64,000 nt of DNA, from the NCBI GenBank assembly GCA_003194425.1, contig PQXB01000001.1, forward strand, positions 199,265 through 263,264, read 5' to 3'. Both the position numbers and the translations under genes were made by a program. Every line of letters starts with the position of its first letter. The stretch's first letter is position 1. The notes under the pieces are model-generated. The model searched no databases. It was given only the letters and a program-made list of their open reading frames with translations, and had not been told where the DNA came from. The stretch comes from Candidatus Methanophagaceae archaeon. Lineage in GTDB: Archaea; Halobacteriota; Syntropharchaeia; Alkanophagales; Methanospirareceae. Positions 59,199 through 62,079 of the stretch are shown piece after piece.

Positions 59199-59360
59199 CG
59201 TTCCGTTCTCTACCCAGCCACTTATTTGATTTATTCTAACTTAAACTTACTTTACTAAGTTTAGTTTTACTTTACCTAACCCGACGCTCTTTCAGTTCTG
59301 ACTGGTAAGAAAAAATTAGGAGGTGATCCAGCCGCAGATTCCTCTACGGCTACCTTGTTC

Positions 59361-60096
59361 ACGCGGTTCCCCATGTCGCCATGAGGCGTGGACTATATCA
59401 CCATCTCAAGGACTTGCTTCTTTCTGGGATGATTCGAGCCGATCAAATATGCAAAATCCCTGTAGGATTCACATCGGACAAAGAATCTCCAGTAGCACGG
59501 GTCATTTTTCTTACTCGGGTTGTGGATTTTTCCGCATTTTATCCCAAGCTCGGTAAGAAACGAACATACTTCTTCAAGGTCTTTCTTATCCTTTTGTGCG
59601 AAGTAAATGTACATTCGTGCACCCGGCTTCTTCGGAACACTACCTTCTGCATCGAAGTATCCACGAACGTAGTCTATTTTGTTCTGTCGAGTCTCGATTT
59701 TTGCATCGCGCAAAATAAATTTGGAGAACTCGACAACATAGACATTTCGCGATTTTCCTTCGCGGTAAATCCACGCATTGTATCCCATTTTACGAATCAT
59801 CGCTGTGATGAAGTAGATGAATGATTCATCGTTCTGGGTAACACGATATGTGTATTTCCGCTCAGTTGCATCATGCAGTATTCCTATGAGATAGGCTTTC
59901 GTCATCCCTTCTTTACCTTGAGAGCTCGGCGTGTAGTCTCTGAGGGGTCAAGAACCTAAACAAAAAAAGAAAAGGTTCCGACTTCCCTGCTGATTGACCC
60001 CACCCAACCCGTTGCCAGGTTGGGATACACGGGTGTTTCCAGCATATAGCCAAGTTTTTCCCAATCCCTCGCGGGAAAGGGGTCGCAACTTTCTTA
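59361..60096 (-). mobile_element. 16S rRNA intron (about 735 nt) at roughly E. coli position 1499/1500, within the universal AAGTCGTAA|CAAGGTAGCC, carrying a homing-endonuclease ORF
   Basis: The conserved 3'-terminal motif is split: ...GGGGGCTAAGTCGTAA [insertion] AACAAGGTAGCCGTAGAGG.... The insertion is AT-richer than the exons and contains the LAGLIDADG ORF. Boundaries are accurate to about 2 nt. Confidence 0.75.
59393..59905 (-). CDS. LAGLIDADG-family homing endonuclease (double-motif, intron-encoded)
   Basis: Motif 1 is KAYLIGILHDATE and motif 2 is VRGYFDAEGSV, the canonical LAGLIDADG/GFFDAEGS motifs. The 170-aa ORF lies entirely inside the 16S intron. Confidence 0.8.
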   Translation of the reverse strand: MTKAYLIGILHDATERKYTYRVTQNDESFIYFITAMIRKMGYNAWIYREGKSRNVYVVEFSKFILRDAKIETRQNKIDYVRGYFDAEGSVPKKPGARMYIYFAQKDKKDLEEVCSFLTELGIKCGKIHNPSKKNDPCYWRFFVRCESYRDFAYLIGSNHPRKKQVLEMVI

Positions 60097-60678
60097 CGAC
60101 TTAGCCCCCCTTGCGAGACTTAGGTTCGAACGCGTCAAGAAACGCGGCCTCACCTAAACCCCACTCGGCTGGCTTGACGGGCGGTGTGTGCAAGGAGCAG
60201 GGACATATTCACCGCCCCATTTTGAGGGGCGATTACTACGGATTCCTCGTTCACGAGGGCGAGTTGCAGCCCTCGATCCCAACCAGGAGCAGCTTTAGGG
60301 GATTACCTTCCCCTTTCGGGGTCGTTACCCATTGTACTGCCCATTGTAGCACGCGTGTAGCCCGGAAGATTCGGGGCGTACTGACCTACCGTGGCCCGCT
60401 TCTTCCTCCACCTTAGCGGCGGCAGTCCTCGCAGAGTGCCCATCTTCCTTGCGGAAATGCTGGCAACTGCGAGTGCGGGTCTCGCCCGTTGCCTGACTTA
60501 ACAGGATGCTTCACAACACGAACTGCCGACGGCCATGCGCCACCTCTCAGCTAATCCAGTAAGGTCTTCAGCCTGACCTTCATCTCGCTGTCCCCTCCGG
60601 TGAGTTTTCCGGCGTTGAATCCAATTGAACCGCAGGCTCCACCCGTTGTGGTGCTCCCCCGCCAATTCCTTTAAGTTT

Positions 60679-60792
60679 GCTGCCACCGCTCGCTCTCGCC
60701 TCTCTCCCTGTTTTTCAAAAAAATGTTGAAAGAAAAAAAAGAAAAAAGAAAAGTAGGGAATTAGGATTTTGGGTTGAGCGAGTGCTGGTTTC
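60679..60792 (-). other. Small 16S rRNA intron (about 112 nt) at roughly E. coli position 908 (GGCTGAAAC|TTAAAGGAATTGGCGG)
   Basis: An A-rich insertion with complementary ends (CCGCTCGCTC ... GAGCGAGTG) interrupts the universally conserved 907-926 region. Confidence 0.6.
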
Positions 60793-60910
60793 AGCCTTGC
60801 GACCGTACTCCCCAGATGGCGGGCTTAACGGCTTCCCTTCGGCGCTGACATCGCTCGCAGCAATGCCAACACCCAGCCCGCATCGTTTACAGCCAGGACT
60901 ACCCGGGTTT

Positions 60911-61110
60911 TTAGTGAGAAGGGAGAAAACATTTGAGTTTGATGACTTTGTCCGGATGAATAATCTTCACTTACTGTCACTCTTAGACTTACTGTCAAAG
61001 ACTTACTGACAACCTTAACGATCTTGGTGTAAGTCTTCAAGAACGATTCTACTCTGCGTTCCAATTTCACATTGGCATCATCCATTTGTTTTGTTTTCTC
61101 CCTCACTCAT
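60911..61110 (-). other. Small 16S rRNA intron (about 200 nt) at roughly E. coli position 793/794 (GGATTAGAT|ACCCGGGTAGTCC)
   Basis: The insertion splits the universal 785-805 motif. The termini form an inverted repeat (AGTGAGAAGGGAGAAAACA ... TGTTTTCTCCCTCACT). Internal CTTACTG(T/A)CA tandem units are present. Confidence 0.6.
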
Positions 61111-62079
61111 ATCTAATCCGGTTCGCGACCCTGGCCTTCGTCCCTCACCGTCGGACCCGGTCTGGTCAGACGCCTTCGCTGCCGGTGGTCCCCCAAGGAT
61201 TAAAAGATTTCACCCCTACCCCTGGAGTACCTCTGACCTCTCCCGGTCCCAAGCCGAGCAGTATTCCCTGAACGCCTGACCGTTAAGCGGTCAAATTTCC
61301 CAAGGAACTTACCCAGCCGGCTACGGACGCTTTAGACCCAATAAACGTGGCTACCACTTGAGCTGCCGGTGTTACCGCGGCGGCTGGCACCGGTCTTACC
61401 CAGCCCTTCCTTCAGGTGCTCTTTAGACACCTGAACAGCCTCCGTTGGAGGCACTCAGAGTTCCCTTATCGCGCTTCCGCGCATTGTAAAGTTTTCGCGC
61501 CTGATGCGTCCCGTAGGACCTGGGTTCTTCTCTCAGAACCCATCTCCGGGCTATTGCTCTCACAACCCGTACCGATCGTCGGCTTGTTAATCCGTTACAT
61601 TAACAACGACCTAATCGGCCGCAGACCTATCCTTGGGCGCCCCGCCTCTCGACGCGGCTTTCGAGCATCGCGCATTCCAGCTGCCGATGCCCTATCCGGT
61701 ATTAGCCCCAGTTTCCCAGGGGTTGTCCCAGACCCAAGGGCAAGTTGTCCACGTGTTACTGAGCCGTCCGCCGGGTTACCTCGCATTCTTCTCCCGAAGG
61801 AGAAAAAAGGAGGCACCCACGACTAACATGGCTTAATCGAACTCTGATGGCAGTAGCCTCTGGCAGGATCAACCAGTATTGAACTGCAGGGTTTCACAAC
61901 ACATTGCACACACTTCTCTGCACTTACCTACCTTCTACACTGTTTCTTACTCACCAATCAGATTTACTGGCTCGTCAGATTAGGCTTACGTCGGACACGA
62001 ACCTGCTTTCTTTCGCGGCCCCACTTTTTTTGCAGCGCAGCGGAAGTCAATTCCGCTTGCTACAAATACACATTTAATC

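Follow-up and report, generated by a model that had tools for sequence, protein, structure and literature searches.

Introns in archaeal rRNA genes have been described in three settings that bear on the locus reported here. In Thermoproteales, Desulfurococcales and Aigarchaeota, 16S introns of the bulge-helix-bulge (BHB) type occupy 13 loci, 908 included (Jay & Inskeep 2015, PMC4496867). DPANN archaea are published hosts of group I introns at SSU/1498, and the same study showed that a single archaeal rRNA gene can hold introns of both the BHB and the group I class (Nawrocki, Jones & Eddy 2018, PMC6125680). SSU/1498 group I introns are also on record for CPR bacteria, where LAGLIDADG_3 was reported in 16S inserts only and the introns at position 1498, called 16IS10, encode LAGLIDADG_2/_3 (J Bacteriol 2024, PMC11270868). 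For ANME-1/Methanophagales, we found nothing relevant on rRNA introns in the literature searched.

The 16S rRNA gene in our window (the whole stretch of DNA analysed, 64,000 nt) is an archaeal gene with three insertions, and their excision restores universally conserved sequence. Judging from the sequence, we propose that its four exons are separated by three introns belonging to two mechanistic classes, with introns 1 and 2 in the BHB class and intron 3 a group I intron (Table 1), and we put the probability of this reading at about 85%. These are known kinds of intron in a new host, and the mechanism is not new. The first-pass annotation of this DNA had called the combination unusual, which was overstated, since mixed classes and SSU/1498 group I introns had been published in 2018 (PMC6125680); its view that multiple rRNA introns are typical of Thermoproteales is outdated. 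Introns 1 and 2 resemble those of Jay and Inskeep in having a BHB at the site, a G+C content below that of the exons and ORF-less "remnant" forms, but the host phylum differs, neither small intron keeps an endonuclease gene, and 793 is absent from the published loci, the nearest being 781 and 803 (PMC4496867). Intron 3 shares with IB4.8, IB4.19 and IB4.26 the insertion site AAGUCGU/AACAAGG (a slash within a sequence marks the junction), and with the IB4-type introns (735 and 743 nt) the length class, a LAGLIDADG ORF within the ribozyme and the presence of BHB introns in the same rRNA operon (PMC6125680). Those hosts are DPANN (Nanohaloarchaeota, Micrarchaeota), whereas ours is ANME-1-like (Halobacteriota); in the window two BHB introns and one group I intron lie in a single 16S gene, and the published co-occurrence is at the level of the host rRNA gene. 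CPR 16IS10 agrees with intron 3 in site, group I class and LAGLIDADG_3 but concerns bacterial hosts, archaeal ones not being treated there (PMC11270868).

Table 1. Features of the rRNA operon in the window; intron classes are as predicted here.
Feature	Coordinates	Strand	Size	Remarks
16S rRNA gene	61879..59318	minus		Rfam SSU_rRNA_archaea 1356.9 bits, full model 1-1478
16S exons (n=4)	61879-61111, 60908-60790, 60676-60096, 59359-59318	minus	1511 nt in total	
Intron 1, BHB, ORF-less	61110..60909	minus	202 nt	after E. coli U793, 790 loop of helix 24
Intron 2, BHB, ORF-less	60789..60677	minus	113 nt	after E. coli A908
Intron 3, group I	60095..59360	minus	736 nt	after E. coli U1498; ORF in P8 loop
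LAGLIDADG_3 homing endonuclease gene	59905..59393	minus	170 aa	inside P8; Pfam PF14528
tRNA-Ala(UGC), 16S-23S spacer	59198..59125	minus		ARAGORN; Rfam tRNA 68 bits
110-nt A+T-rich hairpin insertion, 23S domain I	58630..58739	minus	110 nt	covariance-model insert
23S BHB intron	56644..56808	minus	165 nt	CCCUCUUA/AGGUAGCG; covariance-model insert 166 nt
23S LAGLIDADG-encoding BHB intron, 5' part	55757..56264	minus		ended by assembly join 55756/55757

Insert positions were taken from an alignment to the SSU_rRNA_archaea covariance model, and the boundaries were then refined. The model places the first two inserts, one of 203 nt past model position 735 (GGAUUAGAUA/../CCGGGUAG) and one of 113 nt at model positions 846/847, and the region 60113..59369 is identified as Intron_gpI. 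Three introns near 793, 908 and 1499 had been called from the sequence alone; the alignment and exon-restoring excision confirm them at U793, A908 and U1498. The called inserts are real, but the boundaries of introns 2 and 3 each lie two bases upstream of where they had been drawn. We agree with the gene end at 59318, where the 3' end reads ..GGAUCACCUCCU, and the inserts are AT-rich relative to the exons as claimed (G+C 0.37, 0.41 and 0.45 for introns 1, 2 and 3, against 0.58). All three introns are present on two metagenome contigs from independent assemblies (L001 and L005), and two more (L006 and L007), whose sequence starts within intron 1, contain the other two introns; since the same inserts recur in independent assemblies, they are no artefact of the window contig. 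The exons of the window and of strain contig L001 are identical at 1504 of 1504 compared positions.

Ligation across intron 1 gives GGAUUAGAU/ACCCGGG (also given as GGAUUAGAU/ACCCGGGUAGUCC), and ligation across intron 2 gives GGCUGAA/ACUUAAAGG (also GCAAGGCUGAA/ACUUAAAGGAAUUGGCGG), that is, the archaeal consensus GCAAGGCUGAAACUUAAAGG. Both small inserts carry a canonical hBHBh' motif exactly in the exon-restoring register: CCGG-A-[UUAG]AU^A-UGAG...CUCA-[CUAA]AA^A-C-CCGG in intron 1 and AAG-[GCUG]AA^A-CCA...UGG-[CAGC]AA^A-CUU in intron 2. Each core consists of a 4-bp central helix with two 3-nt bulges on opposite strands ([UUAG]AU^A ... [CUAA]AA^A and [GCUG]AA^A ... [CAGC]AA^A; the caret marks the predicted cut, behind the second base of each bulge), and the outer helices are short, h' having 4 bp (13 more beyond one bulged U) and h 4 bp following an A.C mismatch in intron 1, and h' 3 bp (7 more past a 3x3 loop) and h 3 bp in intron 2. 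Because minimum-free-energy folding of whole inserts or mini-substrates did not return the BHB motif, leaving intron 1 with an 8x8 loop and taking intron 2 to the mature helix-27 hairpin, the motif was scored directly and BHB conformers were evaluated. In the mini-substrate, the BHB conformer of intron 1 lies 0.7 kcal/mol above the minimum-free-energy fold; that of intron 2 lies 5.4 kcal/mol above the helix-27 hairpin with which it competes. An unrestricted scan, which serves as a background rate only, gave 1178 hits in 6.3 kb (8.2 million position pairs), or 1.4e-4 per pair, and with 2 exon-restoring registers for intron 1 and 5 for intron 2 the probability of a chance BHB is ~3e-4 and ~7e-4, respectively. 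Three relatives have neither small insert and show a gap at exactly those points. The claim that all inserts have BHB-compatible termini is therefore borne out by direct scoring of the junctions of introns 1 and 2 and fails for intron 3, as described below.

By motif, we assign introns 1 and 2 to the archaeal BHB introns. In the unspliced RNA, pairing between the final bases of the exon and the 3' end of the intron would create the 4-bp helix between the two 3-nt bulges; the splicing endonuclease EndA, which acts on tRNA and rRNA, would cut both bulges, after which RtcB, an RNA ligase, would seal the exons together and close the intron into a circle. Small A+T-rich inserts could instead be lineage-specific expansion segments kept in the mature 16S rRNA. 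Both are short, ORF-less hairpins, and a 110-nt hairpin insert in the 23S gene that has no BHB motif could be such a segment. Against this, the two inserts interrupt single-stranded elements, the 790 loop and the 908 region, that we take to be universally conserved and functionally essential, and in both the canonical BHB sits in the one register whose excision gives back the consensus. Moreover, intron 1 tolerates an internal indel of ~70 nt and several substitutions between the window and L001, whose exons are 100% identical; 908, as the first-pass annotation had also stated, is a known archaeal 16S intron locus (PMC4496867); and in another metagenomic archaeon the intron at 793 bears an endonuclease. 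We thus consider the expansion-segment explanation very unlikely and retain the BHB assignment for both inserts. A remnant of a LAGLIDADG C-terminus was detected in intron 1, which looks like the decayed leftover of an endonuclease-bearing intron. The ORF at 61106..60825 that spans intron 1 was rejected as a gene, having no credible Pfam match and extending into the exon. A single metagenome scan with the 14-mer GGATTAGATATGAG gave mostly chance matches, with 16S context in one contig only (L178).

Intron 3 is of a different kind. Ligation across it restores the AAGUCGU/AACAAGG site given above, and Rfam Intron_gpI (RF00028) matches with 54.5 bits (gathering score 50, E 4e-11, model positions 1-253); the score is just 4.5 bits over the threshold because the ORF splits the model, and the corresponding scores are 54.4 bits for the L001 homologue and 50.9 bits for that of L093. 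A guide, GUUGCGAC, forms P1 (GUCGU with GCGAC), with a U.G pair at the 5' splice site, and P10 (AAC/GUU) with the 3' exon; the intron ends in ..CGCGUG, the terminal G (omega-G) lying at 59360. The core comprises a P3/P7 pseudoknot, a P4-P6 domain, P8 and P9, with compensatory changes in P3, P4, P7 and P9.0. All 73 of the 73 proposed pairs are standard in the window sequence. In an alignment of 27 sequences, from which ORFs were trimmed using the conserved K-A-Y-L-L-G motif, 84.2% of cells are paired, against 38-49% in slid controls; none of 500 shuffles reached the observed value, and 47 pairs are changed on both sides. Pairing reaches 100% in P4 (4 covarying pairs), 88% in P3 (4 covarying pairs), 100% in P7 (an AU-to-GC change), 99% in P9.0 (3 of 3 pairs covarying) and 94% in P10, and P1 does not vary. 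P7 (G(A)GACUA/UAGUCC) has a bulged A ahead of the guanosine-binding G-C pair, in columns that are invariant in the 27 sequences; we take this nucleotide and pair to be comparable with those of the Tetrahymena P7.

On sequence and covariation, intron 3 is a group I ribozyme, not a BHB intron, and its activity would follow two steps. The guide would pair with both exon ends (P1, P10), an external guanosine would attack after the U of the U.G pair at the 5' splice site, and the terminal G of the intron would then take the P7 guanosine site, leading to exon ligation; this scheme is suggested by the conserved and covarying structure. The first-pass annotation had the largest insert spliced through a BHB as well, so that all three inserts, the endonuclease-bearing one included, would be BHB introns. 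LAGLIDADG-bearing BHB introns are indeed the classical archaeal rRNA introns, one lies in the 23S gene of the same operon, and the nearest fold to the endonuclease is I-DmoI, which comes from a BHB intron. Yet no BHB motif was found within ±8 nt of either boundary of intron 3, every group I hallmark is present along with strong covariation, and IB4.19, a published group I intron, is a homologue. The intron also occurs at the same site in bacteria, which are not known to have a BHB splicing endonuclease. Taken together, these points leave the all-BHB model barely tenable, and we keep to a group I assignment for intron 3.

The ORF of intron 3 had been read as a two-motif LAGLIDADG enzyme, and its homology upholds this: Pfam LAGLIDADG_3 matches at 1.1e-16 in two stretches, 592 homologues were found, and the AlphaFold model (pLDDT 92.3) has two alpha-beta-beta-alpha-beta-beta-alpha halves. 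In a Foldseek search the top matches are I-DmoI, I-Tsp061I and PI-PfuI, with I-DmoI the best PDB match (E 2.8e-9, TM 0.70); the sequence search of the PDB returned PI-PfuI alone (E 7e-5), so the link to I-DmoI comes via fold. I-DmoI, encoded in a 23S intron of Desulfurococcus mobilis, is likewise a monomeric two-domain LAGLIDADG protein of about 170-190 aa, but sequence identity is only ~20%, and it differs in coming from a 23S BHB intron and in its target site. In motif 2 (GYFDAEGS), E87-G88 is at the canonical place. Motif 1 (LIGILHDAT), unlike that of I-DmoI, is non-canonical, with the invariant D12 one position ahead of the usual catalytic Asp and no Gly after it, which leaves nuclease activity uncertain. 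At the DNA level, intron 3 would spread through this I-DmoI-like endonuclease, which presumably cuts the intron-less site AAGUCGU/AACAAGGUA (16S fragment ..GGGGCUAAGUCGUAACAAGGUAGCCGUA..). The stop codon of the endonuclease, UAG, falls in the 3' strand of P7.

It might be argued that the group I fold is no longer autocatalytic or mobile, with host proteins doing the splicing and the endonuclease inactive or serving as a maturase. LAGLIDADG proteins have a known maturase role in organelles, and the non-canonical first motif and the marginal Rfam score would suit this idea. However, the intron family has kept its core helices and guanosine-binding P7 intact and without variation, and the ORF is intact and identical on 12 contigs from different samples, with 44 invariant columns among 22 sequences, which indicates conservation at the protein level. 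The near-equality of intron and exon identity between distant hosts, described next, argues for recent mobility. We therefore regard loss of self-splicing or mobility as unlikely, though with some residual weight, and prefer an autocatalytic, mobile intron 3.

By site and by homology to IB4.19, we assign intron 3 to the SSU/1498 group I family. The boundary rule returns 13564-12830 on MNVH01000001, the exact published coordinates of IB4.19 at SSU/1498; the window ribozyme is 72% identical to that of IB4.19 and the endonuclease 56%. The identical insertion site is occupied in 60 of 80 genome loci that bear a related endonuclease, and the same intron is found in MAGs of Thermoplasmata, Methanomassiliicoccales, Micrarchaeota and Aenigmatarchaeota and in many Patescibacteria, whose endonucleases are 52-62% identical to that of the window; the best endonuclease match in the genome-contig search is 65% identical. 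Identity to three distant contigs (L091, L093 and L094) is 73-77% for intron 3 and only 74-76% for the 16S exons. Since intron identity equals exon identity between distant hosts, horizontal spread is indicated; together with the site shared with CPR bacteria, this suggests that the intron has moved between distant hosts, and probably from one domain to another. The target of intron 3 is among the most conserved sequences in biology, and because it is nearly universal the element can occur in both archaea and CPR bacteria.

The tRNA-Ala noted in the 16S-23S spacer is found by both ARAGORN and Rfam. In the 23S gene, the 165-nt intron has a canonical BHB (h' 8 bp, h 3 bp) and is missing from L093 and L094. 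The 110-nt insertion is also missing from these two; no canonical BHB was found within ±8 nt of it, and hand-built relaxed variants also failed. On L001 the LAGLIDADG-encoding intron is complete: it lies at LSU model positions 2403/2404, measures 931 nt, contains an ORF of 298 aa and has a canonical BHB with an h' of 13 bp and an h of 6 bp. Agreement between the window and L001-L004 stops at 55756, where contig identity changes, and the 23S gene of the window is without the last ~580 nt; because of this truncation, the window assembly shows no complete, functional operon. This could be taken to mean that the operon copy is a pseudogene in decay or that the assembly is at fault, in which case the inserts would say nothing about working rRNA. 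But four independent contigs run through the 23S intron past the join into intact 23S, so the break is a property of the window assembly; the 16S exons score as high as listed in Table 1 over the full model and do not differ between strains, and the endonuclease recurs unchanged in different samples. We judge a pseudogene or artefact very unlikely. As for the host, the malic enzyme gene adjoining the 16S gene and the ProRS gene have their best named matches in Methanophagales/ANME-1, which points to an ANME-1-like relative of Methanophagales.

The chances are about even, in our estimate, that this is the first described operon of the ANME-1 lineage (Halobacteriota) to mix intron classes, with a mobile SSU/1498 group I intron alongside two BHB introns in the 16S gene and BHB introns in the 23S gene, that its group I intron came by recent transfer from distant archaea, out of a pool shared with CPR, and that 793 is a further BHB locus with a decayed endonuclease. 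In practical terms, the split sequences suggest that the introns interrupt the 16S primer and probe sites of the 785F/806R, 907/915/926 and 1492R regions, so this methane-cycle-related lineage may be overlooked or mis-sized in amplicon surveys and with some FISH probes. Metagenome assemblies also break at its rRNA operon, as seen from the join at 55756 and from where contigs end. For the intron family, a Halobacteriota host is added to the SSU/1498 group I introns. The homing-endonuclease life cycle would be illustrated within one gene, by intron 3 with its intact endonuclease gene and intron 1 with what is left of a decayed one. Finally, introns predicted to be enzyme-spliced and self-splicing stand side by side in this gene, which is relevant to the proposed origin of BHB introns from group I introns.

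The 16S rRNA gene, which like the whole rRNA operon of the window lies on the minus strand, is interrupted by three inserts. Our covariance-model alignment places a 203-nt insert after model position 735, within GGAUUAGAUA/CCGGGUAG, and a 113-nt insert at model positions 846/847, and the Rfam group I model Intron_gpI (RF00028) matches from 60113 to 59369 (54.5 bits, E 4e-11, gathering score 50). The G+C contents of the inserts are 37%, 41%, and 45%, against 58% in the 16S exons. Therefore, the three split motifs and the insert sizes reported in the first-pass annotation are correct, as are its gene ends, given the Rfam matches and a 3′ end that reads GGAUCACCUCCU at 59318; its count of three 16S introns is also borne out. 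Of additional note, the helix-6 region has a lineage-specific, pyrimidine-rich extension of ~31-38 nt (CCUCCUUUUUUCUCCUUCGGGAGAAG..; about 38 nt at window 61772-61809, minus strand), which is missing from three more distant relatives (L091, L093, and L094) and looks like an ordinary variable-region expansion, not an intron.

Features of the rRNA operon and of the host-marker genes in the window
Feature	Coordinates	Strand	Remarks
Malic enzyme gene	62106-63614	minus	adjoins 16S, upstream
16S rRNA	61879..59318	minus	Rfam archaeal SSU model, 1356.9 bits, full model
Intron 1	61110..60909	minus	202 nt; BHB motif at model-defined boundaries
Intron 2	60789..60677	minus	113 nt; BHB motif at model-defined boundaries
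Intron 3	60095..59360	minus	736 nt; after U1498; group I hallmarks
LAGLIDADG_3 endonuclease ORF	59905..59393	minus	170 aa; in P8 loop of intron 3
tRNA-Ala(UGC)	59198..59125	minus	16S-23S spacer
23S rRNA	begins 58943	minus	Rfam archaeal LSU model match
23S insert	58739..58630	minus	110 nt; A+T-rich long hairpin, domain I
23S predicted BHB intron	56808..56644	minus	165 nt; ORF-less; canonical motif
23S predicted BHB intron	55757-56264	minus	truncated; LSU model positions 2403/2404; canonical motif in L001
ProRS gene	21976-23457		protein matches

Based on their boundary motifs, we propose that introns 1 and 2 belong to the bulge-helix-bulge (BHB) type. The operon was scanned with a coded canonical archaeal motif, both strands of which were read 5′ to 3′, each consisting of a flanking helix, a 4-nt central-helix half, a 3-nt bulge cut after base 2, and a second flanking helix. 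The scan returned CCGG-A-[UUAG]AU^A-UGAG ... CUCA-[CUAA]AA^A-C-CCGG for intron 1 and AAG-[GCUG]AA^A-CCA ... UGG-[CAGC]AA^A-CUU for intron 2; excision at these motifs and ligation restore the universal 16S sequences GGAUUAGAU joined to ACCCGGGUAGUCC and GCAAGGCUGAA joined to ACUUAAAGGAAUUGGCGG, respectively. Counting from E. coli primer sites, we take the insertion points to be after U793 and after A908. Since the background rate of the motif in the operon region is 1.4e-4 per position pair (1178 in 8.2 million) and only 2 (intron 1) and 5 (intron 2) registers restore the exons, the probability of a chance match is about 3e-4 and 7e-4, respectively. Although the direct scan finds the motif at these junctions, thermodynamic folding alone, the check originally envisaged, does not predict it: The BHB conformer lies 0.7 kcal/mol above the minimum free energy for intron 1 and 5.4 kcal/mol above it for intron 2, where it is less favoured because the mature helix-27 hairpin competes. 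For all introns discussed here, we infer the splicing steps from sequence and comparative structure.

Sequences from elsewhere lend independent support to introns 1 and 2. The metagenome contigs L001 and L005 contain both introns, and L006 and L007, which start within intron 1, both contain intron 2. While the 16S exons of the window and L001 are identical at 1504/1504 compared positions, one indel of ~70 nt, along with several substitutions, separates their copies of intron 1, and L091, L093, and L094 (3/3) lack both introns at exactly those points. Position 908, described as a hotspot by the first-pass annotation, is indeed in the catalogue of Jay and Inskeep (PMC4496867), which has 13 loci for introns in archaeal 16S genes; 793 is absent from it, the nearest entries being 781 and 803. 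A metagenomic archaeal 16S gene (L178, 489-3238; 2750 nt long against a 1478-position model) has a 663-nt intron at the 793 site (1215-1877), whose ends match those of intron 1 (AUGAG...CUCACUAAAA) and which encodes an intact 206-aa LAGLIDADG_3 ORF. The last 27 residues of this ORF are recognisable in the longer intron 1 of L001 (37% identity; the E value of 8e-5 refers to a very small search space); thus, intron 1 looks like a decayed endonuclease intron.

All three inserts had been taken as BHB-compatible. This holds for introns 1 and 2, which have the motif in an exon-restoring register, but not for the largest, intron 3: The canonical-motif scan found no BHB motif within 8 nt of its boundaries, and its features argue for a group I intron instead. 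The 5′ exon terminates in U (AAGUCGU followed by AAGAAAGUUGCGAC), P1 is GUCGU/GCGAC with that last U in a U.G pair, P10 (GUU/AAC) links the three bases in front of the guide to the 3′ exon, and the terminal base is G (..CGCGUG, then AACAAGG); together these place the intron at its boundaries after U1498. Its relatives were retrieved via the endonuclease, which has 592 homologues among the collected proteins; in species-representative genomes, 131 loci were confirmed, and 80 of these were retained. An intron at the identical site, with the GUUGCGAC guide and terminal G, was present in 60/80, including MNVH01000001 13564-12830, exactly the coordinates of IB4.19, which Nawrocki, Jones, and Eddy assigned to SSU/1498 (PMC6125680).

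Covariation was tested on an alignment of 27 ORF-trimmed introns against a P1-P10 structure that includes a P3/P7 pseudoknot. All 73 of the 73 proposed pairs are standard in intron 3; across the alignment, 84.2% of cells pair, against 38-49% with partners slid by 1-3 columns, and 0/500 shuffles reached the observed pairing. P4 (100% paired) and P3 (88%) each show four compensatory pairs, P7 (100%) an AU-to-GC change, and P9.0 (99%) covariation in 3/3 pairs. In P7, which reads G(A)GACUA/UAGUCC, there is a bulged A next to a G-C pair, as is typical of a group I guanosine site. The ribozyme is 72% identical to that of IB4.19 and 78% identical to that of another Micrarchaeota member. Group I introns at SSU/1498 that lack an ORF and measure 229-266 nt also occur in L069, L078, L082, L083, and L084, which come from Thermoplasmata and Methanomassiliicoccales MAGs and, for L084, from a MAG labelled Armatimonadota; the related endonuclease gene of these loci is located elsewhere, and the four archaeal loci have a compensatory P7 change, GACUG/CAGUC.

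The final codons of the intron 3 ORF form the P8 3′ strand and J8/7, and its UAG stop codon lies within the P7 3′ strand. The reading of this ORF as a LAGLIDADG gene agrees with its Pfam match (LAGLIDADG_3, 1.1e-16, two stretches) and with a predicted fold (pLDDT 92.3) of two alpha-beta-beta-alpha-beta-beta-alpha halves. I-DmoI, a suggested comparison, is the closest structure (E 2.8e-9, TM 0.70, 20% identity), followed by I-Tsp061I and PI-PfuI; a PDB sequence search matched PI-PfuI only. Motif 2 (GYFDAEGS) is canonical, and motif 1 (LIGILHDAT) is non-canonical, with the invariant Asp one position early. The 170-aa protein is likely to be an active endonuclease.

The two predicted 23S BHB introns, added to the 16S set, would give the operon five introns or more, from two classes. 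In L001, the 2403/2404 intron is 931 nt long (10825-11755) and encodes a 298-aa LAGLIDADG/HTH protein. The 110-nt 23S hairpin, at which the operon scan found no canonical BHB motif and which is missing from two intron-poor relatives, could be an expansion segment or a relaxed-motif intron. The window matches four independent contigs (L001-L004) only down to 55756; these run on through the LAGLIDADG-encoding intron into 23S, whereas the window enters the 3′ end of an unrelated plus-strand ORF (1103 aa, 52492-55803) and so lacks the last ~580 nt of 23S. Both sides of 55756/55757 are ANME-1-like, and the junction probably arose during assembly, as a join or chimera. Other likely introns were also noticed. 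A 109-nt tRNA at 25526-25634 (minus strand), called by Rfam (50.3 bits) and missed by ARAGORN, is probably intron-containing and likely another splicing-endonuclease substrate. Two relatives sharing the SSU/1498 intron have further inserts: L091 a group I intron of 246 nt that lacks an ORF and lies in 23S (9436-9681, 78.9 bits), and L094 a ~200-nt insert in 16S (about locus 5600-5800) between GGUCUGUAU and GCCC, close to E. coli position 1205, which is among the known archaeal loci.

The best named matches of the malic enzyme and ProRS are Methanophagales, Ca. Methanophagaceae, or ANME-1 proteins (65-75% identity), which points to an ANME-1-related member of Halobacteriota as the host, consistent with the tRNA-Ala spacer. 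The malic enzyme gene is contiguous with the rRNA operon in L001 and L005 too; its product contains about 40 aa of inserted low-complexity sequence, (Gly-Glu-Ser/Arg)n, apparently lacking in ANME-1 homologues (413-445 aa). The rarity first ascribed to this intron combination was overstated, since a 2018 paper (PMC6125680) had already described group I introns at SSU/1498 in archaea, as well as the coexistence of BHB and group I introns within one archaeal rRNA gene. The literature searched mentions no rRNA introns in ANME-1. What is new here is the host lineage, 793 as a putative BHB-intron locus, and the sequence evidence suggesting a decayed endonuclease in intron 1 and a recent lateral acquisition of intron 3.

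Micrarchaeota, Aenigmatarchaeota, Thermoplasmata, and Methanomassiliicoccales MAGs and many Patescibacteria have the endonuclease family, mostly together with the intron at 1498, and Hadarchaeota have it as seen at the protein level only; according to a 2024 CPR rRNA survey (PMC11270868), group I introns with LAGLIDADG_2/_3 genes are frequent at 1498. The closest endonucleases are 69-76% identical to that of the window and the introns around them 73-77% identical to intron 3, while the 16S exons hosting them are only 74-76% identical to those of the window. Equal similarity in the intron and in the exons, which are far more constrained, suggests that the intron was acquired horizontally, through homing. 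The target, AAGUCGU followed by AACAAGGUA, is nearly universal, which would explain the occurrence of the element in two domains.
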